Origin: Mytilus edulis
Taxonomy: Eukaryota
NCBI RefSeq assembly: GCF_963676685.1
Contig: NC_092354.1
Span: 81,530,001 to 81,594,000 of the forward strand
Reading direction: 5' to 3'
Length of the DNA: 64,000 nt
Below, piece by piece: positions 30,607 through 60,614 of the stretch; within the stretch, counting starts at the first letter, position 1, and each line of letters begins with the position of its first letter. The notes beneath the pieces were generated by a model. The model was given only the letters and a program-made list of their open reading frames with translations, was not told where the DNA came from and searched no databases. The position numbers were made by a program, and so were the translations under genes.

Positions 30607-33092
30607 CTATGCTTTACGGAACGGTTGAATCCAACTTTTGATTTTCTCCTTGGCATCAGTTTTTGCTTTTCTGGTTGAAGTAATAGTGTTGTCACTTGAA
30701 TCACACGGACTATCTGTTGATAAGAGTTCAAGTGGATATAGCTTACTTATTGGTCTAGACGTCGTGCCATTTTTAGTGCGTAAAATAGCAGACCTACAAA
30801 GTCCATCTCTCCCATAAACTAACTTAACGATAATCGCTATATTCCACACTGTCCTTGGGGTATCATCATGAATCTGTACAATGTCGCCCACTTTAATGAT
30901 TTGAGTGTTAATTCCGGTGTTTCTATGTTGTTCCCTAAGTGAAGTGAGGTATTCTCGTCGCCATCTGTTCCAAAAGTCGTGAATAATGCGTTTTTGAACA
31001 CTAGATTGTCTATTTGCTGTGTAATGTGTTAAGTTTTGTACGTTCTCCTCACTGCTGAAATTAATTGTTCCTGAATACGGTAAAGTTTTAACCCGTCTTC
31101 CATAGAGAAGATGAGACGGTGTAAGCGGTTCATCATCGGTAAGGTCCGTTGATACGTGGGTTAACGGACGATCATTTAATATAGCCTCTATCTCGATCAC
31201 AATTGTCTCTAGCACTCTAAAAGTAACTAGTGCTCGTCCTAACACTTTCTTTATGCAATTTTTGGTCAAGCCGATCAATCGTTCCCACCAACCACCATAC
31301 CATGGTGCACGCTTCGGAATAAATTTCCACTGAGTTCCATATATGTTGAGTTGTTCCTGAATAGTAGTAGATTTTGTAAGCATTTCAATTTCCTTCGCTG
31401 CTGCGGTATATGTTGTACAATTGTCAGACATCATGATTTTTGGTAACGATTTGCGGCTGGTGAATCTCCTAAACGCTAGAATGAATGTTTGTTCTGTAAG
31501 GTCTTCAACGATTTCCAAATGCACAGCTCTAGTGTTAGCGCAGGTGAATAGACAAATATATGCTTTACTAATACTGTTGCTTTTTGTTCTCACATTCAAT
31601 GCTCCTGTGAAGTCGACACCAGTTACTGTAAACGGCGGTGAATCATTAAGTCTGTCGGACGGCAGAGGTGGTGGGTCGGGTGTATGATATGGTCTTCCGG
31701 TAATTTTACGGCAAGTAACGCAATTACGGAGTATTGATTTCACACATTGTCGAATCGACGGAATCCAGTAAGACTGGCGAATAAATGTCACTGTACTTTC
31801 TAATCCAGAGTGAAAATTCTTTGCGTGTGCATCCATCACAATTAATTTACAAAGTCTGTCTTTGTTCGGTATTAGTACTGGAAATTTAGCTGATTCATCA
31901 ATAGGTGCATTGTTTATTCTCCCGCCACAACGGATAATGTTCATTTTGTCCATGTACAATCTAAGTTGCTTCACTAGCACATTTTTCTCTGATTTGTTAT
32001 TTAAACACTCAATAACATCCGGGTATTTACGCAGTTGCGAATCTCGGATCCATGCAGTCGAAGCAGTCTGAATTTCATTGACACTAAGATTTCCTGTTAG
32101 TTTGTCATTATTTCTACAGTTGTTTATGAATCGGTACATGTATGCAGTTATACGCAAAAGTTTTTGGTATGAGCTGTAGCGTTGTATATCCATAATTTTA
32201 CTTATTCCTTCATAAGATCTGATTTTCTGTTGCGGTTCACTAGTTGATTGTCCTTGCTCAATGGTAGTGCTAAGAATGTGTGATTCTTTATTCTTCCACT
32301 GTGGCCAGTTTGATTTGTCAGTGAGCCATTCGGGTCCTTTCATCCAAAGATCCAATTCTAGGAATTTGGTTGCAGTTACTCCTCTCGATAGCATATCTGC
32401 CGGATTTGAATCTGTCGGACAGTACTTCCATGTGTATTCTTGCGTAATTTCGTTAATTTCCTTCACTCGATTACTAACGAAAACGGGTAATTGTTTCTCA
32501 GTAGTAAGCCAACTTAAAGTTATCTGACTGTCACTCCATAATGTGACGCTTGTAACATCCAAGTGCGATTTCAAATGCTTGACCAGTCTTGCGCCTATCA
32601 AAGCTGCACTGAGTTCTAACTTCGGAATTGTTAACTGTTTGAGTGGTGTCACTCGATTCTTTGACATGATAAGTACGGTTTCTTTTCCACTGACTAAATA
32701 TGCGCATGCTCCATAGGCTTTCAAGCTTGCATCCGTAAACACATGTAATTCTACATTGTCTGATTTTTCTTTGAAATACGGTCTATTAATTTCCAAATGT
32801 GAACATTCATTAATATCTTTTAGAACACACTTCCATTCTGTTGTAATTTCAGATGTAAGAGGTTCATCCCAATTTAATCCTTTCTCCCACAAAGTCTGCA
32901 TAAGCATCTTACTACGCACAGTAACTGGACCAATAAGTCCGAGTGGATCATAGATTTTAGACGATTGTCTTAAAATCTCTCGTTTTGTCATACGTGTATC
33001 TTCAATATCGGTGTATTCCGGTTTGGCGAAAGTAACTGTGTCGTTACAAGTGTTCCATCTCAATCCAAGCACTTTTATGAGTTCATCTTTGT
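30607..33092 (-). CDS. BEL/Pao pol C-terminal part: Pao RNase H region, zinc-binding domain, DDE integrase and C-terminal DUF5641-type domain
   Basis: VLGLRWN, LHVFTDAS, LTIPKLEL, LWSDSQI, NPADMLSRG, VTGVDFTG, MSDNCTTY, WWERLIG. Confidence 0.92.
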
Positions 33093-35195
33093 CTAATACG
33101 CTGTGTCAATTTTCTCGGTGGCCAGTGACTCTATTTTCCAAAATTTCTCCAAGTCGTACTCATCGGTTTTTGTTGCGATCATCACGTTCATCATTGAAGC
33201 TCTCTTGTATCCATCTGTGTCAGAGTTGTGTGAATGTAGCGTTCCAGACAACAGGTATCCGATTTTTGATTGAACAGCTGTCGGTCCTTCGCCTCGGATA
33301 ATATCATTCTGAACAATTGACCAGAAGTAATCAGCTCCAATTAGAATAGAAATTTCAAAGTTTTCATCTGCTGTTACTGGGTGAGCTAATTTGATTCCTG
33401 ACAAATATGTAAGTTTTGCTGCTTGGCGTACATAGGTTCTCATCGGTACTGCGATCTCTGGAACGATCAAGACTCGAATCGGAAGTTTACCCTCTGTAGT
33501 TATGAGATATACCAATCCTGTACTCAAATGGCGAATTTTAGTACTATTTGCATTGTCTCCAAATCCGGATAGGTTAACGCTTTCAGTTCCAGTAGGTTTG
33601 AGTTTCAATTTTTCGGCTAATTCCTCTGTGATAAATGAGCGCTGTGCGCCTTCGTCAAACAATATTTTTGTATCAAGTATTTCATGTTCTGCACTTACTG
33701 GGTTAATTGCTGTCTTCAAAAGTACACGATCTGTCGATTGTGAGTGTAAAACAGTGTCTGGTTCCTCCGCGTTGTGTTGAATTGTGCCTACGGTTATATC
33801 CCCTGTTGGTTTGTTGTCTTCATTTGTTTTAACATTGTCTTTGCAAATGCTGGTGTGATGACGTTTGTGACACTTGTTGCAAGTTTTTGTAGATTTACAT
33901 GCGGACAAGCTATGGTGTCATAGACAGTTAAAGCATAAACGATCTTTTTTCACGATTGACATCCGGCCATTGTAATCAGATACTTTAGTGCAATTAACAG
34001 ACGAGTGTGGCTCCTTACAGTACGCACAGAGTGGCTTGGGTTTAGTGTTAGTTGCGTTTGTATTCTTGTTACCTCTATTTCGATTACTATAATTTGTATT
34101 TGTCAGAAAGGCGGCGGTAGCTGTAGGGTGTTCTAACTGTTCTGAAGTTTTGCCTGCATCCATAATATAAAGTTCATCGAAAATTCCACGGCGTAATTCA
34201 TTCAGTTGTAAATCTGTAGATCTATATTGTCTGGCAAGATTTCTGCGGATTTCACCGGGTAGTTTGTTCATAATAATGGGCACTAAAAACGCTCCATATG
34301 TGTCTTCACTTTGACCTAATGACTCCAATCCTCTAATGTGTATCTCAATTTCATCGTAGTAGTTTTTCATGCTAGATATCGTGTATTTAGGGGCTGGTAT
34401 ATCAACTAGTGCTTGCATATACTTCTGTCTTATTACATGCGATTGTCCATATCTTTCTTGCAGTAAAGAAATAGCTTTCTCATAATTTGCATGTGTAAGC
34501 GCAAACCCTGTGACGGTTTTCAATGCCTCATCATGGAGTAGTGACTTCAAATAATTAAATTTCTGAACGTTTCCAAGAGTAGTGTTTTCGTGAACGGATG
34601 TCTCGTATGAATCCCAAAATGACTGCCACTGCATAATATTACCATCAAAGGTAGGAAGATTCAATTTGGGCAACTTGTTGTACTCATTTAATCTAGTGTT
34701 ACTACGTGAAAACTGAGTTTCCGGTACACGGAAGTTTGAATTACATGTATTCTGTTTATTGTATATCTCGGGTTGAGCATAACTTGGTTGATCATGAGCG
34801 GGTTGAGCATGAGCGGGCTGAGCAGAGGCGGGTTGAGCAGAGGCGGAATGTGAAGGGTCGCTATAACTGACAAAATCTTTTGCATTTGTACTGAGTGTGG
34901 ATGTATTGACAAGAATGAGCTTTTGTATTTGCGTTATTTTTCCATCTAATGTGTAAGCATACTCATCTGAATCGACGATCTCGGCTTCTACTTCTCCTTC
35001 ATCAAGATTTTCTAGAATGTCCTCATTAAGTTTTTGTAGTGTCTCTTGTTTCTTCAACAGATTGTTCACAATTTTAGTTAACTCTTCAGTGTTCACGGGC
35101 TCATCTCCGTCGTCTCGGATGTCCTCAAATTTCTTCAAAAGTCGGGAAATAACGCTTCTGTGTCCTGCACGTATAGAACGTAGTTTGGAACTCAT
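33093..35195 (-). pseudogene. BEL/Pao gag (DUF1759-type, CCHC knuckles) plus aspartic protease, with an in-frame stop at 33918-33920
   Basis: LPKLNLPTFDG...WQSFWDSY; CAYCKEPHSSVNC; CFNCL*HHSLSAC continuing in the same frame; protease motif LFDEGAQRSF. Confidence 0.9.
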
Positions 35196-35211
35196 CCTGG
35201 TCACGGCACCA
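35194..35211 (-). promoter_or_regulatory. Primer binding site complementary to the tRNA-His 3' end
   Basis: TGGTGCCGTGACCAGGAT directly after the 5' LTR. Confidence 0.85.
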
Positions 35212-35212
35212 A

Positions 35213-35385
35213 TATCTTAAAGTGGTATAATCAGACTTTTTAGGCACAAATAAGAAATACTAGCTGGTTTTACTTGTATTGATTCTAAACTCCATTTGCA
35301 CATAAATCTCAACGTCATAAGTAGCATGACGTTACTATACATACATAGCGGTAACGCGAACGTCTAATGAACACAGTCCTGAACA
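35213..35385 (-). repeat. 5' LTR (TG...TA)
   Basis: Direct repeat of 30319-30491. Confidence 0.95.
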
Positions 35386-36446
35386 GGCGTTTATTTGGTC
35401 TATGCCCATGCATTGATGGGTACATAAGTCACTATTATGACTTCTTTTTATTTATCCACAATTACATTAACTGTGGACGTAAACAATTTTCCTTTGTTTT
35501 GCTTGGTCTATATAATTATATTAGCGTTAAAATAGGGAAATAGGAAGGATAATCTTGTTCGAAAATAAGTACCTGAATCAGTCTCAGGAAACAGAACCTT
35601 ATCAAGTTTTTATGAAGATGATCTCCTGAAAATAATCCATCCTCTTTTATATCTTTAAAAAATGTCATCCAAAACTGTGAGTTTTCTTTTCTATAAATTC
35701 CCCACCATGCATGATTCAATTCGTTGATTATGTTGGCTTGTGCCGTAAAGAAACGCACTGTTATTTCGAGCATACGTATCATTATCATTGCGTCGTAAAA
35801 AAGACTGCATTTCAGCGACCTTACTATTTTCGGTACCAAGATCTCCTCCCTTCCGAAGAATAGCTTTGACAAAATACCCAGAAATAACCCGAGGGTCACT
35901 ACTAGTCTGTCCTGCCTCCAGCCATATTATCAGTCTAGAAAAGCCATCTATGCATCCATTTATGCATATTCCAAAAGGTTTAAGTTTATCATAGGAATCC
36001 AAATGCCATATAAAGTTTGGCCCTTTCGAACAATATTCTCTCCTATGTAATCGACCTTTTCGTCGCATTTCAACTCCTTCAGGGTTTATAATTTGCATTA
36101 TAATTCGCACATACTCTTTTTGTATAGTTAAACCTGCTTGTCTACACTTCATAAACATCCAGCGATAACCATGAAGCCTTCCAGATCCTTTAATGTTGTC
36201 TTTGATAAAAGCAACGACATCTTCAAGTGGCGTGTAGTGTTTTCGGCGAAATAAACGTAGCTTCTTCAATATTCGTTTCAGGTGTCGATAAGAAATAATG
36301 TAGTGATGATGTTTTGCTAAAAGTGCCAGTATTTCCATATAATCGAGTCCCATTTCGAAATAAACCCTTATGTATTTCTCCATTCTTTCACTTTTAAGAG
36401 AAGATATTAGTCGCCGTACCATCAGCGCTGAATGAATTTGAATAAC

Positions 36447-36843
36447 ATTTTGTGCGCACATTATATTATGTCGTGCGCACATTATATTATATTGTGCGCA
36501 CAGTATATTATGTTGTGCGCACAATATATTTAAATTGAGCGCACAATATATTATGTTGTGTGCACAAGATATTATTTTGTGCGCACACGATATTATTTTG
36601 TGCGCACAATATATTTAAGTTGTGCGCACAATATATTATGTTGTGCGCACAATATATTTAAATTGAGCGCACAATATATTTAAGTTGTGCGCACAAGATA
36701 TTATTTTGTGCGCACACGATATTATTTTGTGCGCACAATATATTTAAGTTGTGCGCACAATATATTTAAGTTGTGCGCACAATATATTATTTTGTGCGCA
36801 CAATATATTTTTTTTCTTTGCATGTCCCTAGCGGGGCTCCGTA
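36447..36843 (-). repeat. Right TIR, ~17 copies of the same unit
   Basis: Reverse complement of the left TIR, including the variant units (GCGCTC, GTGCACAC). Confidence 0.92.
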
Positions 36844-39674
36844 GGATTAGGTTTGCGGGTTTTGTTAACCATGATTTGTATTTTCTTTATGAAACGAGTA
36901 ATGCAAATTCAATTTCAGTAAACTCCCGTATAATAATTAACAAGAAATGTATCTCTACTCAGTTGTAAGTTGAATTTTACATTTCATTTTGTCTTTGTTT
37001 TTTATTAAACATTTTTTTTTAATCACTTGAAATTCTCTTGTGACTGTATTAAAATTATCATAAATCTATTGGTTCATTGAAGTGCATATATTTTGTTATA
37101 GAACAGAATCTGAACCTCTACCCCTGTTGTCGACGATGGAATACAAAAGGAAAGGACGGTTATTATTGAAAGTAAATAGAGATTATACGCTACTCAAACC
37201 CTACAGATAACGTTCACTATACAGCCTCAGTAATACATATGTGCTTATGGTAATTAAACATGTTAAATAAGTAACGCGCAGCCATTGATGCATACTAGAG
37301 ATTCACAGGTTAAACAAAGATATGTATTCTTATGGTCATTGTTAAACGCGTGTGTAACATTATCTGTATCTGTCAGATAAAACAACAAATTGATTAGCCA
37401 ACATTGATATACCATGTACATCAAATGATATAGTTATTGTTTTATCTTAAACTAGAATACAATACACAAAAGACATGCTCAAATGATTGCCTACGTTTTA
37501 GGTAGAGTTGCAAATCCTAATGCAAACGTATAAAATATGTTTAAAAAATACGTTAAAAAAGCGTAGATCTGAACAACGAACAAGTGCTATACATAAACAC
37601 ATCCATTTCTTGGTTTAACATGATTGCAATACATTGGAAAGTTTTAATAAAACAATACCTTGTTAGTACAGATACTATGCAAGTGTACCATTGGGAACTA
37701 AAAGCTTAAACTTATCATGTACACTAATTGAAATGAAGATCTACTGAAGCTATTAATTGACATGTTATGAATATTTAACAAAGCCAATTATCCATAACCA
37801 ACTGCTGTTATTAAAATAAGTATAATTTTTTCTAAAATTTGTTTTAAACTAAATCTCGTTATCAGAAAGTTAGTGTCATATATGTCCCCCCCCCCAAAAA
37901 AAAAAAACAAAAACAAAAACAAACAAAGAAGAATTAAATGATACCGATACCAGGACACCATGACAACAAACCAGACGAAACGACTAACAACAGTCTACAA
38001 AACACGTCCCAAATAATAAGCACAACACGTTCTTTTATATTATATTGAATGCGACTTTTTCACAATTTGTATTACTTTCATTATCATTATCACTTAGCTA
38101 AAGAGTATTAAATCAAAATAGAAAAAAACAAATATTTCGGATTGCATAAGTTTGACCATTCTGATGTCAATGGTGACCTATTCTCGTTTTTGTTTTTTAA
38201 TCTTTCGATTCAAACACATTCCAGATTGATTTTGTTTTAAACAGTTAGTCTTATATCAAACACAATATTGAATTATATTCCAATTTGATAAGGTAACTGA
38301 CAAATAATTGTATGTATATGTCCTTAATGAATTTCAGTTTCATTGGTTATGTAGGATGATCTATTGTCTTATATTCTGGTATTCAGATATTTGCCTGGTA
38401 GAATGTGAATTTATACAACACATAATTGTAGGAACACCTCGATCCTGTTCCACCATCTTTGTCTCATAGATAGAATTTACATTTTTATGTACTTATTTTC
38501 CCAATGAATATGATTTTCAAGCTTGCAAAGTTTGAATCAACACTGCGCTATGCATTCAACACACGAATAGTGTAGTCAATCTTATAGTTCGAAATTTAAA
38601 CTGCAATACATTCAACTTCAATTGTGAACACTTTTAAATCTGCCTCATAACTAGATTACCCTTAGCTGTCTTTAGCAAAACTTTAAGGACTGAAAACAGT
38701 TTACCCTTCGGTTGTGCTTTCAATATGTGTCAGTATAAAATCTAAGAGGACATTTTAAATACTGATGATGTACTGTACATACATGTACGTCGGTTAAGGA
38801 AATAAAAATATGAAGTTCAAGTTATGAATATAAAGTAATTATTAGTCACTTTTCGGAGAATTCATTCTAGTTAAAAATGAAGATACAAAGCTATAAATAG
38901 GTTAAGATAAAAAAAAAATCGGTACAGCAATTTATCATGTCGATCGTTATACAGGAAATTAACAAGAAAATATGAGATGACAAAATGGTAACGATTTTTT
39001 TTTTATTTGTTTCTATTCCATGTAAATCATTATTCAAATTTCGAATATAAATAAAAAGCATAATTAAGTAAAAATGTCTGAATCGATGGATCACCCTGAA
39101 CACTGTCTAATTATGAGAAATTAAAGGTTGACAGGTAGGTGAAGCTTACATAAATGAATAGATAAATGAAAAATGTACAAATTGATACCCGATTTATATA
39201 ATTCCGAGGCCGATAGTTGGCACCAGAAGCGACGGACAAATATTCACTTTTTGATATGGGACAAGCTCTGATGTCCAACGGCCCCAGCTTGTCTAACAAA
39301 ACAGCCGTTGGCCGTCACAGTAATCTCGATATATTACAGATAGTGTGGAGAACATCATCAAAACGTAGTCAAAACAGTCAATCACTCTTCATTTGTATAA
39401 CATTTCATCCGTAAATGTTGTATTTACATATCAACTATTTGAGTTGATTACTTCTAGTGAATATGAAGATAAAATAATTAATTCAATGCACATAATCCAA
39501 AGTCAAACCAGACATGTAATGTTATAATCTTTATTTTTGTAATTTTAGATGATGAATTAAAAGGCAAATTGGTAATTGGCAATAACAGTTTTTTTGGCAC
39601 AACTTTTTGGACTTTTGGATCCTCAACGCTCTTCAACTTTTTACTTGTTATGCTTTATAGATATTTTGATATGA

Positions 39675-39718
39675 GCGTCACTGATGAGTCTTATGTAGAC
39701 GAAACGCGCGTCTGGCGT
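39675..39718 (+). ncRNA. Type I hammerhead ribozyme (family B, intact) in a repeat fragment at ~39592-39762
   Basis: GCGTCA CTGATGA GTCT TATGT AGAC GAAA CGCGCG TC TGGCGT. Confidence 0.92.
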
Positions 39719-41721
39719 ACTAAATTATAATCCTGGTACCTTTGATAACTATTTACACCACTGATTCTTGTTATGTTGTAATACATTGATTTTCGATAAA
39801 CCATAGTCATAGTACATAATTAAACACTACTATGAAACCCTACTAGGCATCATATTTCACCATATATTTATCGAAGTAAGTGTGCTATCATAATTCGTAT
39901 CGTAATGTGTAGGATGTTGTTTGACTGTGAGTGCTTTGATATTGATCTTAATATTGTCTGCATTTGTGCTACACATGGCGAACTTGGAACCTCTATATTT
40001 GTTGTTTCTTCGAAACTTGACAATGGATTATCTTACGGCGGTAGGAAATATGTATATTTGCGAAACTATAAGGTTAGCTTTCAGTAATGTTTCCGGTGAA
40101 GGTTATATACGGGTAACTTCAAAAATTATAAGTTAAACACTACGTTTGGTTATATGAAGACTATTACATATATACCAACAAAACAAAGCTTTGCATACAA
40201 ACTTTTGGTACTTAAGATTAAATGATAAAATGTAACTACCTGTTTCTGGTTAACTATCCCTTTAATTACGTCTCTTCATCATCAGCCATTTTAAGTCAGA
40301 AACTACAATCGTCACCAGGAAACACTTATACTTAACAAACGGAAATTTAATACTCACTGTTTTATTTAATGGAGAAATGGGAAAATTATTATGAGCTTTC
40401 CGTTTCTTCATCAGTCTGTGTCCGTCTTTTTTTAAATTATAATTTTTTTAGATTATTTTCTATTTTTAGGTTTTCTGTTGTTTTATTTCGATTACTTATT
40501 TGTAAAATTTTTTCTCTTTTGTTTTCTTTATAAACAAAATTAATGCCTTTCATCAACGTCAGCAATACCATATACAAAAGGACCCGAAATTACTAATGTG
40601 AAACCATCTTAATGAGAAAAACAAAGGATTAAATTGTGTACAACAAAATTTACGACAAACATAACAATATTTTAAAAAGTTGTTTGTTATACTTCTTGTT
40701 CTATGATTCAATGCAACGGGAGAACACGTAATCACTTTATCATCATAAAAGTGTGCATAATTTGAAGCCTGGTTACAATCAATCTTATGTCGATCCGAAA
40801 TTTGAGCAGATCTATATGGATATTATTCCTATGCGTTTCTTCACTACATTTAGGCGCACCGAGATATAATTAATGAGCGAAATCTATCAATGAGGTCGCA
40901 ATAATTGTAGTGATAACGAATTTCTAATCAGTACATACTCTGTGTTTATTCTGTGGTAAGTTACCAATTCGTTGTTGACATGAATGACATTTTATAAATT
41001 TACAGTTTGCAAAAGTATGAAATACCCTAATTACTCAGGATGTTCTTATCCCAGGCAGTAAACCTTAGCTGTTTGTGGCACATTTTTGAGAATTTTGGGT
41101 CATCAATGCTCTTCATCTTGGTACCTTTAATTACTATTAGCAAGTCGTTACAGTATGGTCAAACTGATTTAAAACCCGTCAAAATTTCATTCAGTTAATT
41201 GAACAACCAACCTGTTATCTTGATTATATGTTTCGTTGAATGATGAAGACCTCATTAGATAAACATTTGAAATTTATTTGATCCTTCTTCAAATGCTTAT
41301 GATATTCACCTTTTGGATTATAGCTCTTCATCTTTTATATAAGCTTTGGACTTCAAATATTTTGGCCACGAGCATCACCGAAGAGACATGTTTTGTCGAA
41401 ATGCGCATCTGGTGCAACAAAATTGGCACCGTTGATTTTATTACTACCACTGGGTCGATGCCTCTGCTGGTGGACTATTAGTCCTCGAGGGTATTACCAG
41501 CCCAGTAGCCAGTACTTCGGTACTGGCATGAAAATACGGATTTTTTGTGTTATTAAAATTTGCTGTTACATAGTATTAAAAATTATTATAAATAAAGGAA
41601 TGTATCTCCCTCATGCAAAGCTCTGATTCTTTTCACGAACTTGGCTTTACTTTTTGGACCTTTTGGATTATAGCTCTTCATCTTTTATATAAGCTTTGGA
41701 CTTCAAATATTTTGGCCACGA

Positions 41722-41765
41722 GCATCACTGAAGAGACATGTTTTGTCGAAATGCGCATCTGGTGC
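41722..41765 (+). ncRNA. Type I hammerhead ribozyme (family A, intact core)
   Basis: Stem I GCAUCA/UGGUGC, core CUGAAGA, stem II GACA/UGUC, GAAA, palindromic stem III UGCGCA, AUC cleavage triplet. Confidence 0.9.
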
Positions 41766-41942
41766 AACAAAATTGGTACCGTTGATTTTATTACTACCAC
41801 TGGGTCGATGCCCCTGCTGATGGCCTATTAGTCCCCGAGGGTATTACCAGCCCAGTAGCCAGTATGATTATGATATTCACCTTTTGGATTATAGCTCTTC
41901 ATCTTTTATAAAAGCTTTGGACTTCAAATATTTTGGCCACGA

Positions 41943-41986
41943 TCATCACTGAAGAGACATGTTTTGTCGAAATGCGCATCTGGTGC
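41943..41986 (+). ncRNA. Type I hammerhead ribozyme (family A, intact core, shortened stem I)
   Basis: As above, with G to T at the outer end of stem I. Confidence 0.85.
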
Positions 41987-42641
41987 AACACAAATGGTAC
42001 CGTTGATTTTATTACTACCACTGGGTCGATGCCTCTGCTGGTGGACTATTAGTCCCCGAGGGTATTACCAGCCCAGTAGCCAGTACTTCGGTACTGGCAT
42101 GAAAATACGGATTTTTTGTGTTATTAAAATTTGCTGTTACAAAGTATTAAAAATTATTATAAATAAAGGAATGTATCTCCCTCATGCAAAGCTCTGATTC
42201 TTTTCACGAATTTGGCTATACTTTTGGACCTTTTGGATTATAGCTCTTCATCTTTTATATAAGCTTTGGACTTCAAATATTTTGGCCACGAGCATCACTG
42301 AAGAGACATGTTTTGTCGATATGCGCATCTGGTGCAACAAAAATTGGTACCGTTGATTTTATTACTACCACTGGGTCGATGCCTCTGCTGGTGGACTATT
42401 AGTCCCCGAGGGTATTACCAGCCCAGTAGCCAGTACTTCGGTACTGGCATGAAAATACGGATTTTTGTGTTATTAAAATTTGCTGTTACAAAGTATTAAA
42501 AATTATTATAAATAAAGGAATGTATCTCCCTCTTGCAAAGCTCTGATTCTTTTCACGAATTTGGCTATACTTTTTGGACCTTTTGGATTATAGCTTTTCA
42601 TCTTTTATATAAGCTTTGGACTTCAAATATCTTGGCCACGA

Positions 42642-42685
42642 GCATCACTGAAGAGACATGTTTTGTTGAAATGCGCATCTGGTGC
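42642..42685 (+). ncRNA. Type I hammerhead ribozyme (family A, G-U at the base of stem II)
   Basis: CTGAAGA GACA..TGTT GAAA TGCGCA TC. Confidence 0.75.
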
Positions 42686-44377
42686 AACAAAATTGGTACT
42701 GTTGATTTTATTTTAATTTTTCAAAACAATAAAGATGTTCCACCCTCGTTATAGATTTACCAAACTGCATAATAATCTTATACTCGAAAGTAGCTTATGA
42801 GTTTTTGAAGAAAAAACGCACGTCTGAAGAAACCATTTTTGAACCTGGTATCTTACGATGAATTTACCCTAGATTTTGATATTTCATTTTTTACATCGAC
42901 AAACTACGCAACAATTCAACCTTAACAGGAACTGATCTGAACCCACAACTTAATATTGAGTCAAAACGCCTGTGCCGACGTGTTAGTTGTGCATTTTCCA
43001 ACATATTAGGTGTTTAAGAGATTGCAGCTCCTCCTTAGATTTTATTGAACGTCACCAGTGTCTGAACAGAAAGTTGACGAACCAGGAGTATGTTAAGGAA
43101 CTTCTCGACATTTTTCTAAAGCGAAATTTTTGGAAGGTACCAAGACCTTGTTATTAAATATTGCGTGTCAATGCAATTTCACAAAAAATACACGATGGTA
43201 TCGAAGCCTAGTGTATGCGTTCTGACGTTGTTTATCATCTTAATTCGTGTCTTCACTGTCTTTTTTGGGGGGATATCTATTTGACGTGGCTCTGTACTTG
43301 TACGTCCCGACATTGTTTTGATTGCACTGTATTTCATACATGCTATTGTATTATTATTCTATTAATGTTTTGGTATTCTGATCTGTCATATTTGCTAATG
43401 CTTTGCCTATATTGACTTTTGGGTTTCTTTTATACATCAACGGGACTCTTTTATACAATTGTAAGAAAGACAAGCGGCAAGAAGAGAAGGTAAACTTTTA
43501 ATTTAAATTCTCTAAAGGATATCCCTATATAACTAAAGACTATCATATGTTAATACTTTGAATGACAACATTATATTATATCTGTACCTGTGTGACATTT
43601 ACATTATGACGGCAAACGATTCTACGTTAGACTCAATGTTTGTCCCAATACTTAAAGTCTTTCAGTCGTTTATTGGTAAATTTGGCATACGAAGAAAAAA
43701 ATCAATTTATACCGTTTGTGCTCCTTTGTTTAATATTTGTTTGATGATGTTTTGATTAAGATGCTTGGGGTGCTTGTGCGTCCTGTCATTATTGCTTGTG
43801 ATGTTCTCGTAGTCTTGTCTTACGTGTTTGCTTGTTTTGTTTTGTCTGTATGCCCTTGGTGTTACTTTGATGTATGTGGAGTGACTATGTACTCATCCAT
43901 CCCGTTATTGTGTTATTGTAAACAGTGTGTGTTGCTTGCCTTCAACTTTGTTTCTTTGTTACATATATAACGTGACTCTGTACTTATACATCCCATCATT
44001 TGGTATTTGTAGTATGGACATTTATTTTTGCTTCTCCTTAACTTTTGCTAAAATGCTTGGTTTATATGCAATTGTGTGCTTCTTTCTTACATTTTTGCTT
44101 GATGTGTAGTGATTAAAATTATAACACAATGCCCACTGCTTCATATTTTTACCTTTTATTGCCTGGTTGTTTAGTTCACGCATTGTTGCGATTACAATGA
44201 ATTTTGATGCAACTGTCATACAAAAAGAATTTCAACTAGCTAGAAAACCAGGTTCAATCCGCCATGTTTTTTCATAAGAAAACGCCTGTGCCAAGTGTAT
44301 ATTGACAGTTGGTTTTTTTCTTTTTATTTGTGCTTGACCTTTTGATTTTGTCTTTTCCTATCTTTTCATATCGTTAA

Positions 44378-45461: not shown

Positions 45462-47442
45462 TTTGAATAGTGACATTCCATTTGAATTTGCCTTGGAGTT
45501 TATTTTCTCTATGATCTTACTTCCTAAAACTTTCGAGTATCAACGTACTGGCTGTAACACCGAAAATATTAGGCAATACATTGTGTGACGTCATAATTAC
45601 CGATAAACACATTACAAGGTAGTGTCGCTTTTGATACTGACTATATCATGATGAATATCTTAACTCGAGCTGACGGGCTGGATCAAAGGATTAACTTCAA
45701 AACTTATAGTAGGTAATGAATGTTTGACGTCATGAATTTTGAAGATTTATTGCACTAGTGCTATATTAGATTTTATTGCACGCTACCTTTTGCTTACTTT
45801 ATGTGGGAAATATTATATTGCTATGCAATAAAATATGTTTCCCTCCAAAATATACAAGGAGACACTGTAAAATAAGCATCGTAACTTCCGTAGTATTCTT
45901 TAATCTCGTAGATGTAGTTGAAATTCCGCGAAATATAATAACATATGTTGGCAAATAGTCGGAAACTATTGACTGGTAAACAAAAAACCTTGTAATTTGA
46001 CAATTAGTGAAAATATGGTGTACCTTTTCTTTATTAGAAACAGATAACTTAGGTATGATCATGTTTACTATTACTCAAAGGGAGTAGACAGCATAATGGA
46101 TCTTCATTTGATTGTAGTATTAACAGTTCATTAATCCGTCCATATGTCTTGTCGCTTGTCTGTCACATGACATGCTGGTCGTATTTTATCAGATGCTAAA
46201 TTGTATACTGCTAATAATATGAACTACACATCATGTTGTTTCAATAGATGGGTATTGATATATACACATATATACAGGACTGAGTAAGCCAGGGACATAT
46301 TCAAACATTTACCTGAAAATTCTATGTATATATATAAAAATAAATACAAGATGTATTGAACTTCCATATCCTTTTTATCTGCATATACTAGCTAGTTGGT
46401 TTTATTTAATTGTACTGATTATGAATCATAGTAAAAAGCAAGCATCAAGATGCAATTCATTTATTTACAACATAACAGAAAAAAGATCATTGACATGTTA
46501 TTTATCCACCTACAAAAAAAAGAAACAAACTTATCAATGAATTTATTAATCAATTCATTAGCTAATCTCCACTTTAATTACAAAGTAAACCATTTGATTC
46601 AAACAAACCATTATAGTTCGTATATGTTTAACAATTAAAAATAATAAGAATGCAAATAATGAATTATTGTTATTTATTCCAACAAATCATCAGGCACTAA
46701 TAAGTCAATTTGTTTAGCAGATTTAATCTAAGAACTTCACCGAGTTTTAACTCCTATTTTAATACCAAGCATATTGATACTCAGTTAGTCTACCTTAATT
46801 ACATTGAATAATGTTGTAATACGTATCTATGTAATCATACAATAGTTCCTCAGTAACAATATTTTACTAATTTGTCATCGCAAAACGTGCAAAATATTGA
46901 ATGCAAGATCAGCTTTTACATAACACACTTAATAGTAATAGAGAGCTAATAACTAGACTGCTATTCTAATAATCAAAGTATTGATATGTAATTAGTTACC
47001 TCAATAACTATTAATGATGTTATTATACGTACATAGATGAGTATATGTAATAATACCAGGGTTCCGCAATAACAATTCTTTAATAATGAGTTTGGTATCG
47101 CAAAAATTAAATGGTAGTATTGTCGTTTCGGTTATTTATATTATGTACCTATTAATAATGGATATTTAATAAATCTATCACTCATTTCAACACTATCATT
47201 GTGTTCAAACTGTGTAAACTTCTACTTCAATGTATTGTGGGAGGAATATTTTGATGAATGTTTTATGAATAATTTGTAATCTGTTAACACGCATACCTCG
47301 TTTTGTTCTTTTGTAAATTTGTATGATTAACAACCGCAAAATGAAATCATTTGTAACCTTTGATGTTATCAAATCTCTTCAGGAAATACATACGTGTATT
47401 TAAATAAAATCATCATAGATAACAGGACTAAATTTTGTATAT

Positions 47443-47487
47443 ACGCCAAACGCGCGTTTCGTCTACAAAAGACTAATCAGTGACTCT
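47443..47487 (-). ncRNA. Family B hammerhead with a G8-to-U core mutation, within a retrozyme fragment at ~47405-47680
   Basis: Minus strand GAGTCA CTGATTA GTCT TTTGT AGAC GAAA CGCGCG TT TGGCGT. Confidence 0.7.
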
Positions 47488-47850
47488 CCAATCTAAAAAT
47501 TTTAAAAGGCCGAATAAAGTACGAAGTTGAAGAGCATTGAGGACCAAAATTCCAAAAAGTTTTGCCAAATACAGCTAATGTAATATATGCCTGAGGTAGA
47601 AAAGCCTTAGTATTTCAAAAATTCAAAATTTTGTGAACAGTAAATTTATAAATATAACCATATCAATGATAATTCATGGTATGTCGATTCGCAATTGAAG
47701 CACCACATTATGGATGTAATTTCTATGCGTGTCTTCCCTACATTCAGACACATACATATAGAAATAATTGCCAAAACAAAAAAAAAACGTACCAGGGAAT
47801 AATTGTAATGGTAACAATGTCTAAACAAAATGGATGTTACCTTGTCGTGT

Positions 47851-50307
47851 TTAGTAAGCCTTTGGTTTACGCATGCCTCCAATAAGTCCACCGGAAGGTC
47901 GTCTGTTGATACCATATCCACGGTAACCGCCATAACCGGAAGCATTAGTAGACCACCATGGCAGCCATTTACAACATGTTCTGTTCCACCAAGAATAGAA
48001 GGGCAGACGACATTGACTGCTGATTTGTATTTCTCCCTGACGACAGGACCAGCTACGACAGGTACACCACCATCTTCCTGTATAACAATAAGGTACTGGA
48101 AGTCTCAGAATTTAAGCATTCTTGGTAATACTTGCAAATGTGTAAAGCAAAATTAGCGATCAATTATACTATCAATAGACCTTTAGATTCTAAAACGGTG
48201 AATTAACTTTTCGATTTGAGGTTTTAAGTATAAATAAAGGATTTCCAGTTTTCATTAAAAAAAAAAAATAGTATATTTCGACACAGCATATAGTTCGGTT
48301 TTTTTCTTTGAATAATCGTTTGTATGGCCATTAAACATCAATATACAATGATATTGTTCATGACAGAAACATAATTCTATGATAGGATGATATTTTTTTA
48401 TTATATAAAGCGCAAATAATTGCAAAAAGATTGACAAAGATCATATATCAAATATGCAAGATTTGATTTGTAAAATTGTGAGTAAATCAAGTCATCATGT
48501 TAAACAGAATCGAATTATGAACGCAAAACTAGTTATTGACTTGGACAATAACACTCAACAGTGACGAAAAACGCTAGTTTCAACAAATAATTGCCACTCG
48601 AATCAAGGTGTTTAAGACATTCATAAAACAATGAAATTTATTTTATGATAACAACTATTATTCGTATATCGATTATTTGTATTTGTTTCAAATAATGTTC
48701 TCTTTACTTATAAGATATAAGAACTCGCCAACACTTGTACTGTTTTTTTTAGATGTTCCAATATTAATGCCTTCAACATAAATAAAGAGACCCCAACTGT
48801 CAAAAAGCTAACTGTTTCAACATAAAATGTATCGTTTATTTTAGTTTTGAAATGTTGTCAAAAAAAAGAGATAATTCAGACAATATCTAATAAAGAAATA
48901 TATACTGATTCAGATCTCCTGAGTTATATATCGATATAAACGTACATATATATGTATGAAGTGTTAATGATTGTGAACCAAGTCCTCTATATCATATCTT
49001 ATATATAAATATGAAACCATGGCTCCAGTTAGGAAACACATACACAAAAACGACAATGTGTGGATAACAATAACTAGTAGTTTAATGAATTTGAGGTAAC
49101 ATAATTTTTTTAATTTTCCATTTTTTTTAATAACAAAATCAAATAAACAAGGAAAGCGGTACATACCTGCTCCAAATCCACCACCATTATTACCTCCGTA
49201 CCCATATGGCCCACCCGGTCCAGATCCTGGTCCTGCACCACCAGGACCACTACCTATACTGCCTCCTAAACCATATGGCCAACCAGTACCAGAACCCGGT
49301 CCTGCACCTCCGGGACCACTACCTATACTGCCTCCCAAACCATATGGCCAACCAGTACCAGAACCCGGTCCTGCACCACCGGGACCACTACCTATACTGC
49401 CTCCTAAACCATATGGCCAACCAGTACCAGAACCCGGTCCTGCACCACCGGGACCACTACCTATACTGCCTCCTAAACCATATGGCCAACCAGTACCAGA
49501 ACCCGGTCCTGCGCCTCCGGGACCACTACCTATACTGCCTCCTAAACCATATGGCCAACCAGTACCAGAACCCGGTCCTGCACCACCGGGACCACTACCT
49601 ATACTGCCTCCTAAACCATATGGCCAACCAGTACCAGAACCCGGTCCTGCACCACCGGGACCACTACCTATACTGCCTTCTAAACCATATGGCCAACCAG
49701 TACCAGAACCCGGTCCTGCACCACCGGGACCACTACCTATACTGCCTCCTAAACCATATGGCCAATCAGTTCCAGAACCCGGTCCTGCACCTCCGGGACC
49801 ACTACCTATACTGCTCCCTAAACCATATGGCCAACCAGTTCCAGAACCCGGTCCTGCACCACCGGGACCACTACCTATACTGCCTCCTAAACCATATGGC
49901 CAACCAGTACCAGAACCCGGTCCTGCACCACCGGGACCACTGCCTATACTGCTTCCTAAACCATATGGCCAATCAGTACCAGAACCCGGTCCTGCACCTC
50001 CGGGACCACTACCTATACTGCCTCCTAAACCATATGGCCAACCAGTACCAGAACCCGATCCTGCACCTCCGGGACCACTACCTATACTGCCTCCTAAACC
50101 ATATGGCCAACCAATTCCTGTACCTGGTCCTGCACCACCAGGACCACTACCTATACTGCTTCCTAAATTATAGGGCCAACCGATTACATTTCCCTGACCT
50201 TGTATACTGCTACTAAGGGGAACACTACTGACCTTATTGAGTGCCAAAGTTTGCTGAAAAGACAAAAGTACCGTCAAAATGGTAAATAAGCTTCTTGGTG
50301 TAGCCAT
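47851..50307 (-). CDS. Secreted Gly-rich repeat protein A (~455 aa) with a C-terminal six-Cys module; exons 50307-49167 and 48077-47851
   Basis: TATA box upstream. Signal peptide MATPRSLFTILTVLLSFQQTLA. 14 x 23-aa repeats GWPYGLGGSIGSGPGGAGPGSGT. Phase-1 intron (GCAG/GTATGT...ATACAG/GA). Exon 2 reads GRWWCTCRSWSCRQGEIQISSQCRLPFYSWWNRTCCKWLPWWSTNASGYGGYRGYGINRRPSGGLIGGMRKPKAY*. The structure is conserved in paralogue B. Confidence 0.92.
49215..50182 (-). repeat. Coding minisatellite, 14 x 69 bp
   Basis: Near-identical units encoding the 23-aa repeat. Confidence 0.95.
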
Positions 50308-50360
50308 TTGTACTGTTACTGGGAGAATGTCCTGTGAGAACCTATACCACATCTTTCTGT

Positions 50361-50367
50361 ATTTATA
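50361..50367 (-). promoter_or_regulatory. TATA box of gene A
   Basis: TATAAAT about 55 nt upstream of the ATG, conserved in paralogue B. Confidence 0.7.
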
Positions 50368-50979
50368 CAAACCTATCACCAGCTGAGAACAGTAAGAAAA
50401 ACTAATATAGAAAGTGATTGAAATCACACAATGCACTCAATCGTCTTTTTTTCGATAATTTTATGTTACTTTTCTTTTATTCGTTTATTTGAACATTAAT
50501 AAAGGTTAAAGGTTAAAGATTGAAACAAATAATCAAATGTAACACATGCTATATGTCAATTGATCGTAAACAAGCTTATCACCACAAAACACGTTTCTAA
50601 AAACCAATTCAACATTACTTTTGTAATAAAATATGCACTTTTATTTAGGTGTTTCTTAATATACAGTAGAGCAAACCCGTTTTAAACACAACTTTAGATT
50701 GATGAACGTCTGACTCATTTATTGACCACATCATTATACAGAAAACATCGTGACAGACTTTAATTTACTGTAAATTTAGAAATAATTGCATGCATTTTTT
50801 ATCGCGATATTTTGAGATGAAACACAATAATGCAAAATCAATTAAATCCCTTTTAGTCAAACCCGAATGCTTAAAAATTATCAAATATAAAAATGTCTCT
50901 CCCAAATCAGAAGCCTGTAATTCAATGGTTTTCGTTTGTTGTGGTGTTTTTTTTGTTCATGTTTTGTAAATAAATATTA

Positions 50980-53784: not shown

Positions 53785-54748
53785 TATACGAGTCTAAATT
53801 GAAAACTACGTTCAAACCTATGATTGTGATGGATATAAACCGCAATTTTTATACGTGTGCTTGTAAAACAAATTTCGTTGTAGAAGGCTATAAATACAGC
53901 ACAAACAACATTTTCCAAAAGACCAAAAAAATGAAAAAGTATATTTAAACAAAACGCATTTGACTAACAGGTCGAACAACTGATGTTCTTTAACCCTGCT
54001 GACTGCCATTGGCGATTGCCAAATAAAATTGATCACAAGATGTAACAAAATGGATCTTAATATCAATTTAATACTAAACAGAAAACAATTAACAAGTGGC
54101 CACGATGTTAAGCCACAAACATAAGGTGTCAATATTTTTTTTGAACACCAGATCCGGATTTCGACAATAATTGTCTCTGCAGTGATGTTAGGGATGGAAA
54201 CGGTATTTGGAAGGCCATATAAAAAGTACCCTCATTTTTAGATAGACTCTTGAATTTTAAGAGTCAATATAGGATGAACGGATCATATAAACCGGAGGGA
54301 AAATATGATACAAGCCCAAACGAAAAAATATAAACGAGTCTAAATTTAAAACTACGTTCAAACCTATGATTGCGTTGGATAAAAACCGCAATTTTCATAC
54401 GTGTGCATGTAAAACAAATTTCGTTGTAGAAGGGTCTAAATACAGCACAAACAACATTTTCCAAATAAAATTGATCACAAGATGTAACAAAATGGATCTT
54501 AATATAAATTTAATACTAAACAGAAAACAATTAACGTGTGGCCACGATGTTAAGCCACAAACATAAGGTGTCAATATTTTTTTTTGTACACCAGATCCGG
54601 ATTGCGACAATAAATGTCTCTTCAGTGATGTTAGGGATCGAAACGGTATTTGGAAGGCCATATAAAAAGTACCCTCATTTTTCGAAAAAAGTACTCTCAT
54701 GTTTAGATAGACTCTTGAATTTTAAGAGTCAATATAGGATGAACGGAT
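53785..54748 (-). mobile_element. Tandem dimer of a third retrozyme-like family (C), hammerheads at 54145-54188 and 54588-54631
   Basis: Two direct copies. Minus-strand consensus ACATCA CTGAAGA GACA n5 TGTC GAAA TCCGGA TC TGGTGT; each copy has one different core substitution (CTGCAGA; GCAA). Confidence 0.8.
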
Positions 54749-54916: not shown

Positions 54917-56059
54917 TTAAATGTTGTATATCGTGTACTATTATTTGTCTGATTGTCTTTTTTCTTTTTAGCAATGCTGTTGTCGGTTTATTTTCGATAT
55001 ATTAGTTTAAATGTCCAGCACAATAGTGAAGATGTGGTATCGGATTGAAAATAAGTTTTCTACACGTAAGGGCAACATTTCAATTTAAATTTGAGCATCC
55101 GTGGAAGAATTGTTTTAAGGTTGTGATAATGAAATCCTTGACTTTATAATTTATCAGTAGTATATAGACGCACTCCTTTAAGGCCAGAAATTCACATCAT
55201 TGACGGAATCACAAACTCATATGGGATATGAATGCAGCAAAATAATTTGCTATTAGATTTTAAATACGACCATTTGAATAGATACAATGTTGGAATTCAA
55301 TACTGATAAGATTGTGTGGAATTGTAGTCTTTCTGGTTTTGTTTTTTGTCGTTTTTCATTGATTGACATGGCATTGGTTTTTTAACGATTGAATGCCCCT
55401 TTGGCCTCTTCCGACTGTCTTTTAACAAGTTGTTTTCATTCCGGAAAACATTTCACATTTCACGTTATTGATACACTTCATTATTCTTTGCCTTCTCACG
55501 CTTTTTATGTTTTTTAACTGTCTTATTTCTGATAGTGGAAATTCAGAAATTATTGCGATATTTTATTAACGCGAAAATTCGATTTGGTACGTATCGTAAA
55601 ACTTAGAGTATATACAAAAAACGAATGTGTGGTATGATTGCAAACGAGATAACTCTCCACAAAAGGATAAAATAACACAGAATGTATAGCTATAGGCCTT
55701 CAACAATAAGCTATAAAAGGTCCCGAAATCACAATGTAAAAGATATTAAACGAGAAAACTAACGGCTTTATGAATGTACAAAACACGAACGAAAAACACA
55801 CAAACAAACGACAACCATTGAATTACAGGCTCCTGACTTTGGAGAGGCATTTTTATATTTGATATGCTTTTATGCACTAGGTTTTGACTAAAATGGTTTT
55901 AATTGATTTTGCATTATTTTGTATCATCTCAAATATCGCAATGATAAATTCACGCAGTTATTTCTAAATAACAGTGTTGCTTTCCCGTGTTTAAAAGTCT
56001 GTCACGATGTTTTATCTTCAACTTTGTACTTGTTTGGCTTTATAACTATTTTGATCTGA

Positions 56060-56103
56060 GCGTCACTGATGAGTCTTATGTAGACGAAACGCGCGTCTGG
56101 CGT
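56060..56103 (+). ncRNA. Type I hammerhead ribozyme (family B, intact) in a ~115-bp insertion upstream of gene B
   Basis: Identical to the 39675-39718 motif. Confidence 0.92.
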
Positions 56104-56581
56104 ATTAAAATTATAATCCTGATAACTATTATGAATCATGCTGAGGTCAATAAATGAGTCAGACGTTCATCAATCTAAATTTGTGTCCAAACGGTTTTGC
56201 TCTACTGTATATATAGAAACACCTAAATAAAAGTGCATATTGTATGACAAAAGAAATGTTAAAATTGTCTTTAAAAACTGTCTTGTGGTGATAAGCTTGT
56301 TTACGATCAATTGACAGAGAGCATGTGTTATATTTGATTATTTGTTTTACATGTTTCAACCTTTATTTGTCAATGATCAGACCATCAATTGACAGGTAGC
56401 ATATGTTATATTTGACTATTGGTTTTAATCTTTAACCTTCAACCTTTATGTATGTTCAAATAAAAGAATAAAAAAAAACTTACATGAAATTAACGAAAAA
56501 AAGACGATTGAGTGCATGTTGTGATTTCAATCACTTTTTTCTGTTGGTTTTTCTTACTCTCCTCAGCTGGTGATAGGTTTG

Positions 56582-56588: not shown

Positions 56589-56636
56589 ACAGATAGATGA
56601 GAGATAGGTTATCACAGGATCCTAGAAACAGTACCA

Positions 56637-58616: not shown

Positions 58617-59146
58617 ATATGACTAGGTACAATCCAATATGTATTGATTAGAAATTTATAACTACAATTATTCCCTAACAACCTACAATTTATTTCGGTG
58701 ATTATTTCTAACTCTGTGTTTCTAATTTAGGGAAGAAACGCATGGAAATTACATCCATAAAATGGTGTTCAAATTGCAAATCAACATAACATTAACTGTA
58801 ACCAAGATTCAAATTAGGCACACTTTTTTAATTAACAAAGGATTAAGATTTCTCTCGTACCATTATATCAAATGACAAGAAAAAAAAAACAACCTATAAC
58901 ATGTCCTTTACATTAGGGGTTCAATTAAAGGCTTAAAGACACCTAACGAATTGAAAATAACTGTCAAATTTCGGACTTGGTATTGTTCAAAGAACTTAAT
59001 GGATATAATCTGGCTTGGTAGCTTGGTAAACATTTTACTTCTTTGACAGCAGCATTACAGTCTATACTATTGACAGCAATGTGTGAAAAAGTAGAAGACA
59101 TACATTTTATCAAATGTTTGGCCTTTTTAAACTTTTTTGGATTCGA

Positions 59147-59190
59147 GCGTCACTGATGAGTCTTTTGTAGAAGAAACGCGCGTCTGGCGT
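59147..59190 (+). ncRNA. Family B hammerhead with a broken core-proximal stem II pair
   Basis: CTGATGA GTCT TTTGT AGAA GAAA CGCGCG TC TGGCGT. Confidence 0.75.
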
Positions 59191-60614
59191 ATATACTAAA
59201 TTTAGTCCTGGTATCTATGATGAGATTATTTACCACCACTGGGTCGATGCAACTGCTGGTGGAGATTTATTTCCCCGAGGGTATCATAAACCCAGTAGTC
59301 AGCACTTTTTGTGATATCATGAATTGTCATTTATATGGTTATATTTTTTCATTTACTGTTTACGAATTTTTTAAATACTAAGACTTCATGTGAATTTCAC
59401 GTGAGATTGATGTTAAATTCAGGTGAGCAAATATGCCTGTGTATCTATGATGAGTTTTCTTTCTTTATCAAAGGTTATATCTAACTACACGTATGCATTT
59501 CCAAAAGAGATTTGATAACAACAAAGAGGATACATTTGACGGTTGTTAAACATAGTTTTATAAACTAAAAAAAATAAAAAAAATTTAAACTGATTACAAA
59601 TTAGTTGTAAAACATACATCAAAACATTCCTCCCGCAATCGATATTAGTTGTTTTTTGTTAATATATTTTGTACATAATAAGTTCGTTAGTTTTTCCGTT
59701 AAATGGTTTTACATATTTTATTTCGGGCTCTTTTACAGTTGACTATGCGTAGTTGGCATTTTGCATTGTTGAAGGCCGTACGGTGACATGTAGCTTTAAT
59801 ATTGCTGTGTCATTCTGTCTTTTGCAGAGAATCGTCTCATTGACAATCATACCACATCGGTTTTAATTAAAATTAACACACTGATATTGATTAAATAAGT
59901 GTTGCGTTCATTGTATATTCATTAAGTATGTCATGTATATTTGAAAAATAGTTACTTTGAACAGTTTTACTATTTATCGACGTGTGTTTGGTAAAGGACT
60001 GAGTAATATAGTGAATCTCGCAACTTTATTTTATCAGGTTTCCATTTAATATTCTTTTTTTTTGGATGACACATTATTTATAGAGGGGCGAAAGATACCA
60101 AAGTAATAGTCAAACTCCTAAATTGACAATAAACTGACAACACCATGGCTAAATGAAAAAAAAGACTAACAGACAAATAATAGTACACAAAAAAAACAAC
60201 ATTGAAAACTAATGACTGATAACACGAAACCCACTAAACACTGGAGGTGATCTCATACGTTCCAAAAAGGGTAAAGGACACTAAAATCATTATGTTGATT
60301 GTTTGGCATTATTGAAAATGGTTAGACACACACGAACTGTGGTTCACATTTTCAACTTGGTAATGTAAGGGAAGATTAGTGGATGCGTTGTGTTAAATTA
60401 ATTATTTCATTGATAACTTTTCTTTGTCTTTTTTTGTAGGTAGATATATGACATGTCAACGATCTTCTTATTTTATCTTGTAAATAAATGAATCGCATCT
60501 TGATGCTAGCTTTTTATATGATACATTATCAGTACAGTAAAACAAAACCAACTAACTAGTATGCAGATGAATTTAAAAGGATATGGAAGTACAATGCAAG
60601 TTTACGTGAATTGA

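Follow-up and report, generated by a model that had tools for sequence, protein, structure and literature searches.

A tandem array of retrozyme type lies at positions 41297–42712 of a 64,000-nt stretch of the Mytilus edulis genome (RefSeq assembly GCF_963676685.1, contig NC_092354.1, positions 81,530,001 to 81,594,000 of the forward strand), hereafter the window. An initial annotation, made from the letters alone, had described five type I hammerhead ribozymes here; all five are present in the sequence (Table 1), spaced 350, 221, 349 and 350 nt apart. Their common design is a stem I of 6 bp, a stem II of 4 bp, a core of the form C(U/C)GAAGA and a short stem III that, loop included, reads as UGCGCA, a palindrome. 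Cleavage is predicted after an AUC triplet, which in copy 2 ends at 41759 as annotated. A strict type I descriptor, run on the window and on 30 mononucleotide shuffles, picked out five sites in the window, namely copies 2, 3 and 5 and two members of a second ribozyme family (39681 and 56066), and none in the shuffles. The GC content of the array units is 37–42%, against a range of <45–50% for metazoan retrozymes without long terminal repeats (non-LTR retrozymes). No stop-to-stop frame of ≥110 amino acids (aa) overlaps the array. It consists of tandem units only, without LTR architecture, though no search was aimed at a primer-binding site or polypurine tract.

Table 1. Features of the retrozyme array, in window coordinates
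Feature	Position	Strand	Remarks
Native upstream target DNA, 13-mer TTATGATATTCAC	41297..41309	.	Second copy at 41868
Tandem duplication, 571 bp	41297..41867	+	568 nt of flank and array, plus a 3-nt insertion
5'-truncated unit with hammerhead 1	41310..41442	+	Final 133 nt of a unit
Hammerhead 1	41372..41415	+	Core from 41378; U4C variant (CCGAAGA); site after 41409; possibly still active
Full 350-nt unit, true register	41443..41792	+	Naiad-type hairpin, UUCG hairpin, AT-rich part, hammerhead, 33-nt tail
Naiad-type 5' hairpin, copy 1	41443..41510	+	One G-C pair changed to G-U
UUCG-loop hairpin, 8 bp	41508..41527	+	Also at 42079–42098 and 42429–42448; duplication breakpoint inside 5' arm
Hammerhead 2	41722..41765	+	Core from 41728; sole copy with core and stems unchanged; site after 41759
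Predicted 221-nt product, sites 2 to 3	41760..41980	+	Single-locus
Unit fragment, 72 nt	41793..41864	+	Naiad-type hairpin with two pair-breaking changes; UUCG hairpin lost
Duplication junction	41865..41880	+	Three inserted bases, then second 13-mer copy; tandem 6-mer TATGAT x2
5'-truncated unit with hammerhead 3	41881..42013	+	–
Hammerhead 3	41943..41986	+	Core from 41949, intact; stem I down to 5 bp; site after 41980
Full unit ending with hammerhead 4	42014..42363	+	Naiad-type hairpin 42014–42081 intact
Hammerhead 4	42292..42335	+	Core from 42298; A14U (GATA); site after 42329; likely inactive in cis
Last full unit	42364..42712	+	Hairpin 42364–42431 intact; fixed 3' end of the family at 42712
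Hammerhead 5	42642..42685	+	Core from 42648, intact; G10.1-U11.1 wobble closes stem II; site after 42679

The variants reported initially (CCGAAGA in copy 1, GATA in copy 4, a stem II wobble in copy 5) all read as claimed. Copies 2 and 3 had been described as having intact cores, and both do, but the weakening of stem I in copy 3 had gone unmentioned: a G-to-U change loses the outer pair, and two further private changes lie immediately 3' of it. In a dimer, one hammerhead core can cleave its neighbour's site. C at position 4 is a natural, tolerated hammerhead variant, and changes at A14 lower activity >100-fold (PMC4075628). Judged from their bases, only copy 4 of the five is likely to be dead in cis. 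Copy 1 may still be able to cut and, given that U4C is tolerated, a monomer of normal length (350 nt) could come from cleavage at copies 1 and 2.

The family is abundant. A 23-nt word from the ribozyme has 4,977 exact matches in the 1.37-Gb genome, and the reversed control has none. A search with the unit returned 2,112 first-look candidates, 40 of which were scored to give 172 matches; arrays were found on 14 contigs, and the best full-length units are 95–97% identical. For comparison we used the 38 other arrays that matched best, each of at least one unit, excluding array pieces of <88% identity and leaving a separate fragment at locus L031 out of the length and target-site counts. One of four intact hammerhead variants is borne by 78, 19, 16 and 9, respectively, of their 135 units.

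The array was initially taken for a non-LTR retrozyme of the kind described in Mytilus, and this assignment holds for hammerhead, unit size, GC content, lack of coding capacity and dispersed high-copy occurrence. In Mytilus galloprovincialis, non-LTR retrozymes of ∼350–390 bp account for about 5,000 hammerheads in two families (Cervera and de la Pena 2020, PMC7229834). Shared with these elements are the type I hammerhead and ∼350-bp low-GC tandem repeats; the presence of thousands of copies, with two related ribozyme families per genome and neither LTR nor protein, is likewise common to both (PMC7229834). The family fits the described Mytilus ∼350-bp retrozyme, to which we liken it by size, copy number, the two ribozyme families and a match to Naiad_Mgal in the genome. 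Compared by description with the M. galloprovincialis elements (PMC7229834), the copy here differs in being decayed and in having undergone a local duplication. The locus thus belongs to a known kind of element, of whose thousands of copies it is an old and decayed one.

Further retrozyme sequence is scattered through the window. Two solo 5'-truncated copies of the second family (39593–39763 and 56015–56127, + strand), each with an intact CUGAUGA core at the sites given above, end a few tens of bases past the cleavage site. Older related fragments of 70–84% identity lie at 40959–41124 (+), 5534–6059 and 6573–7291 (−), 10435–10676, 47412–47678 (−), 54134–54187 and 54581–54630 (−), 59105–59374 and 63648–63798; the hairpin discussed below is retained at 6632–6699 (−) and 59232–59300. 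Elsewhere in the genome, an array of ∼21 units (L019) is interrupted mid-way by second-family sequence.

To map array ends, we used a register in which position 1 corresponds to 41310 and cleavage falls after position 100. The 3' ends of all 38 other arrays lie at unit positions 133–138 (133 in 17 arrays, 134 in 12, 135 in 4, 136 in 3, and 137 and 138 in one each), i.e. 33–38 nt past the cleavage site and directly before the hairpin. The 5' ends are distributed uniformly over the unit (Kolmogorov–Smirnov P = 0.95, with two end values taken by eye), and none of the 38 falls within 3 nt of the cleavage site. Target-primed reverse transcription leaves such a pattern of ends, fixed on the 3' side and ragged on the 5' side. 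Flanking duplications of 6–10 nt were seen at 8 of the 38 arrays, compared to 3.9% of 1,482 mismatched flank pairings used as controls. Two arrays (L015 and L024) have different 5' ends and a nearly identical 3' flank, which suggests that one site of a different repeat was hit more than once.

The position of the fixed end bears on the nature of the template. If copying starts 33 nt beyond the cut, no more than 33 nt of complementary DNA (cDNA) could be made from a cleaved linear monomer, and arrays as long as those observed (1.4–21.6 units) would therefore need a circle or an uncut multimer. As an alternative to the circle, the template might have been a linear multimer transcribed from the source array and cut incompletely or not at all. 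The mussel hammerhead is slow, with an observed rate constant of about 0.1/min (PMC7229834), and is predicted to be masked by other folds; Naiad elements (see below) also occur in tandem without any ribozyme. Against this, arrays reach 21.6 units, 9 of the 38 show no differences among their own units yet are distinct from the family majority, and circles predominate in mussel retrozyme RNA (PMC7229834). A young, homogeneous source array could mimic such internal identity, but on balance we consider a linear template rather unlikely.

Which reverse transcriptase (RT) copies the family is suggested by the hairpin itself. Naiads are Penelope-like elements (PLEs) that encode a GIY-YIG domain together with an RT. 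An N-terminal GIY-YIG protein encoded at locus L105, used as query, gave at least three Naiad families with frames of ∼1,000 aa, although Pfam scores for families B and C are weak. When the hairpin was matched by BLAST against 20 Naiad loci, unit positions 134–200 (unit-3 hairpin) matched the start of the hammerhead-free Naiad family C with 85.5% identity over 69 nt (E = 3.6e-18; 6 of 8 loci), and the same hairpin matched family B with 83.7% identity over 49 nt (6 of 7 loci). The remainder of the unit has no match in the 20 loci, nor was any hammerhead found in them. A strict hairpin pattern, run separately, failed on all seven family B loci, in six of which BLAST had found the hairpin. In family A, two overlapping sets of loci carry the motif in 4 of 5 and 22 of 30 cases. 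Copies of families C (8/8) and A (5/5) terminate at the word found directly before the hairpin where Naiads lie in tandem; family B ends fell outside the fetched loci. Taken together, hairpin and ends imply that the true unit opens with the Naiad head and closes 33 nt after the ribozyme.

An alignment of seven hairpins, five of retrozyme type and two from Naiads, shows pairing in 95.7% of cells and two-sided changes in 7 of 23 pairs. This count was reached by none of 500 shuffles and by no slid control; the sequences are related, so these figures are not a probability. Published Naiad sequences show the same head. In the supplement to Craig et al. (2021, PMC8557442), the hairpin core word occurs 11 times. 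Ten of these occurrences fall in the opening ∼70 nt of a named Naiad consensus (CGi, Sglo, Tgra, Mcor, Mgal, Bpla, Skow, two Pfla, and Cmel), and the header of the eleventh was not shown; the figures are occurrences and not a share of all Naiads in the file. Naiad_Mgal from this supplement starts with the family A bases, at the equivalent of unit position 134. Neither 'hairpin' nor 'stem-loop' occurs in the main text of PMC8557442, as available to us, and the retrozyme account in the available text of PMC7229834 says nothing of a constant 3' end or of a Naiad hairpin.

The array thus carries the sequence marks of a Naiad-dependent non-autonomous element, i.e. a Naiad 5' hairpin and the same end point. 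It contains no open reading frame for GIY-YIG plus RT, such frames being found elsewhere in the genome, and is therefore not an autonomous Naiad. Naiads (PMC8557442) have the same hairpin at their first bases and the same 3' end in tandem copies, and likewise show 5' truncation and partial tandems resembling pseudo-LTRs. They differ from the array in encoding GIY-YIG and RT over 3.4–4.4 kb and in lacking canonical hammerheads. A second precedent is provided by non-autonomous Chlamys elements such as MRC1 (PMC8557442), which are PLE-dependent and, like the mussel array, non-coding and arranged head to tail. MRC1-type elements share the 3' end of their helper (PMC8557442), whereas the mussel array shares the 5' hairpin of its candidate helper and has a hammerhead in addition. 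From these comparisons, it is likely that a Naiad enzyme copies retrozyme circles into the genome. Short stretches similar to Naiad 3' ends lie in or beside retrozyme arrays (L162:1738–2399 and the 3' flanks of L018 and L023; identified by eye).

Alternatively, the hairpin could have been inherited from a Naiad ancestor, or serve as a promoter or stability element, with copying performed by another retroelement such as a hammerhead-bearing Penelope, a Neptune or a long interspersed nuclear element. Elements with a C-terminal GIY-YIG domain and long intact frames are abundant in the genome, a different hammerhead lies near such elements in L089 and L108, and retrozymes of Xenopus resemble PLE pseudo-LTRs (10.64898/2026.07.22.740005). 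Yet the hairpin motif is present in 0 of 44 such GIY-YIG loci, retrozyme and Naiad insertions share their end point relative to the hairpin, and hairpin pairing is kept across retrozyme subfamilies. These data make another copying enzyme improbable. We also looked for a helper among the Pfam GIY-YIG loci and found none: the RT plus GIY-YIG elements of this set have no shared end, and its matches to the unit are stray retrozyme fragments. The hammerhead in L089 (2419, +; 2110, −) and L108 (1393, −) is a third type I form, unrelated to the other two; the ends of the L089 element were obscured by TA repeats in the similarity search.

We then considered how the odd spacing at this locus arose. As the initial annotation had stated, TTATGATATTCAC at 41297 recurs at 41868; it had offered a 571-bp local duplication or a two-step insertion as explanations. 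Relative to other loci, the window units share seven variants across the internal junction. Five of these are rare elsewhere (0/110, 1/118, 2/133, 2/117 and 2/125 other units). The presence of rare variants on both sides implies a single template for the whole array, which supports the local duplication and argues against two independent insertions. Private changes number 22 in 1,387 nt, and the duplicated pairs (units 1/3 and 2/4) share none of them, versus ∼8.8 expected for a recent duplication. The duplication therefore belongs to the first third of the array's age (95%). Internal divergence is 3.1%, compared to ≤2.1% in the young-biased comparison set.

Junction searches agree with a single event. 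The flank–element junction occurs twice in the genome, both times at this locus, and the internal short-unit junction once at ≤2 mismatches. The last two bases of the 13-mer (AC) match the family sequence too, leaving 2 nt of microhomology at the 5' junction. Membership of the 13-mer in a subfamily or helper element was considered and rejected, as the junction is confined to this locus and the 13-mer lies in element-free flank. Four DNA runs were checked for an empty site. Run X8 gave a 277-nt contig at about two-haplotype depth that matches 41098–41309, with no listed change in the 13-mer; its final 65 letters do not align to the array. The site is likely empty in X8, as judged from this contig. 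Runs X2, X4 and X5 have no cover at the exact 5' junction and are uninformative. Reconstruction of the empty site from repeats was uninformative as well, the 5' flank having 16 matches (72–77%) that stop before the junction and the 3' flank being single-copy.

Could the extra 571 bp date from first-strand synthesis? In such a scheme, the RT jumps from the circle to the upstream target, copies 13 nt, returns and stops at the same base. The early date of the event, inferred from the absence of shared private changes, is compatible with this, and 5' junctions of R1 and R2 show short duplications of upstream target (PMC2718515). The scheme requires two stops at one nucleotide, though 5' ends are spread evenly over the unit; in two other arrays, the end does lie no more than 1 nt from the stop point. 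A DNA-level duplication of 568 bp of element and flank, 99.3% identical, exists at L160. We therefore think an RT jump possible but distinctly less plausible than duplication at the DNA level. A merger of two alleles during assembly is very improbable. Units 1 and 3 differ by 3.1%, near the value for flank alleles (6 differences in 212 nt), and the junction is known from the assembly alone; but all five units are about equidistant, as the age of the array explains, the junction contains a precise, templated-looking 3-nt insertion, and other arrays in the assembly are clean.

The initial annotation had further proposed that cleavage at copies 2 and 3 would release a 221-nt monomer. Such release may be possible, but the junction is unique in the genome and stem I of copy 3 is weakened. 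Units of odd length are common in the family. The first 100 listed matches contain 33 pairs of adjacent ribozymes, and inspection by eye showed a spacing outside 341–354 nt in four of them, one owing to a deletion within the array, one to a local duplication of 568 bp, one to a diverged neighbour and one to a nested insertion. A 221-nt circle folds no better than shuffled sequences (z = +0.7), compared to z = −1.4 to −2.1 for three ∼350-nt circles. In unit 2, all three private changes fall inside the hairpin, two of them breaking pairs at positions invariant in all seven aligned hairpins, and the UUCG hairpin is missing. With a local duplication and a junction present once in the genome, the 221-nt unit is debris, a single-locus accident. 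That it is a mobile short variant, or that two insertions hit one site, is largely refuted and ranks as the least probable of the explanations considered. The upstream part, which follows a repeated flank, does stop at unit position 205, and a length of 221 nt is within the 170–400-nt range of retrozymes, but position 205 is not the family 3' end, and the shared rare variants, the unique junction and the poor folding all tell against this idea.

In our judgement, the locus is probably an aged insertion of an abundant Naiad-headed 350-bp hammerhead repeat, likely made by a Naiad RT on one RNA circle and followed early by the 571-bp duplication. A source array would first be transcribed, cut by its hammerheads and ligated into a circle; transcription, cleavage and circle formation have been shown for Mytilus retrozymes (PMC7229834). 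A Naiad protein would then bind the hairpin that it shares with the opening of its own RNA and nick the DNA, with copying beginning on the base just before the hairpin, where the fixed end lies. Going round the circle, it would have written ∼2.4 units at this locus (41881–42712). During or soon after integration, a DNA polymerase may have slipped from the UUCG hairpin to the upstream flank via TA microhomology; the breakpoint in the 5' arm of that hairpin and the repeated 6-mer at the junction are slippage-like signs. The 22 private mutations accumulated afterwards. If transcribed, the locus would give pieces of 350, 221 and 699 nt, the 221-nt piece having a damaged hairpin and having not spread.

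Several observations weigh against this account. An Rfam search, which the initial annotation had suggested as a check, gave no hammerhead at gathering score across the window and none at E ≤ 10 in 41000–43000. In no copy, taken in its wider context, is the hammerhead predicted as the minimum-energy structure; the pairing probability of stem I is ≤0.06, and adopting the hammerhead costs 1–10 kcal/mol in context. No target-site duplication, which in metazoan non-LTR retrozymes is >4 bp where present, was found at this locus or at 20 of the 38 others, and the comparison set, consisting of best matches, is biased towards young copies. The covariation count comes from only seven related sequences, two of which supplied the structure. 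RT plus GIY-YIG elements of other domain order are also present in the genome, and the shared hairpin could mark descent from a Naiad, not present use. In the folding data, copy 3 has the costliest hammerhead in two shorter contexts, and folding ranks the activity of the copies no further. Three weak Rfam matches to bacterial small RNAs (E 1–4.5) were dismissed as chance.

The window contains several unrelated features. A Bel/Pao-type LTR retrotransposon with several frames lies at 30607–35216 (−); its 832-aa frame matches Pao peptidase, integrase zinc-binding and DUF5641 domains. An integrase-core (rva_4) frame at 35691–36810 (−) sits beside a 21-bp tandem array, and a similar array is found at 15283–15627. 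An uninterrupted 458-aa frame at 21029–22405 (+) matches HECT (E = 1.3e-5) and is possibly carried by a mobile element. Two paralogous frames (48964–50436 and 56601–57503, −) have a signal-peptide-like start and Gly/Pro/Trp/Tyr-rich repeats in 69-bp and 54-bp units; they look like secreted structural proteins.

PLEs have been proposed as likely helpers of retrozymes (PMC7229834, PMC7761336), and a 2020 review describes animal retrozymes as having no conserved motif that would indicate the helper retroelement (PMC7761336). For Xenopus retrozymes, use of PLE machinery has been proposed, along with a terminal sequence common with PLEs (Li, Clavereau and Pollet 2026, 10.64898/2026.07.22.740005). 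In the available text of that preprint, the evidence comes from Xenopus pseudo-LTRs and not from molluscs, Naiad appears only in coral, and neither a hairpin signal nor a priming site is described. We found no publication that states a link between the Naiad hairpin and retrozymes, in a search that left most subscription papers outside its reach.

While the locus itself is ordinary, the anatomy of the family is of interest, its Naiad-headed architecture being a testable addition to what is described. With a hairpin and an end point common to retrozymes and Naiads, there is a candidate enzyme, together with a signal and a base at which copying would start, and hence the helper question becomes directly testable. 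We lean, by a modest margin, towards a broader proposal in which mussel retrozymes are miniature Naiads with a captured hammerhead. The ∼65-nt hairpin, conserved at the very start of Naiads from bivalves to hemichordates, would be the signal that loads the RT, the copying start would demand circular or tandem RNA, and the ribozyme would make the circle; Naiads may also use such RNA. Penelope-like RTs are the closest relatives of telomerase. The Naiad hairpin offers a handle on how these enzymes choose and prime their RNA and, if the proposal is true, movement of Naiads via circular or tandem RNA would explain their pseudo-LTRs.

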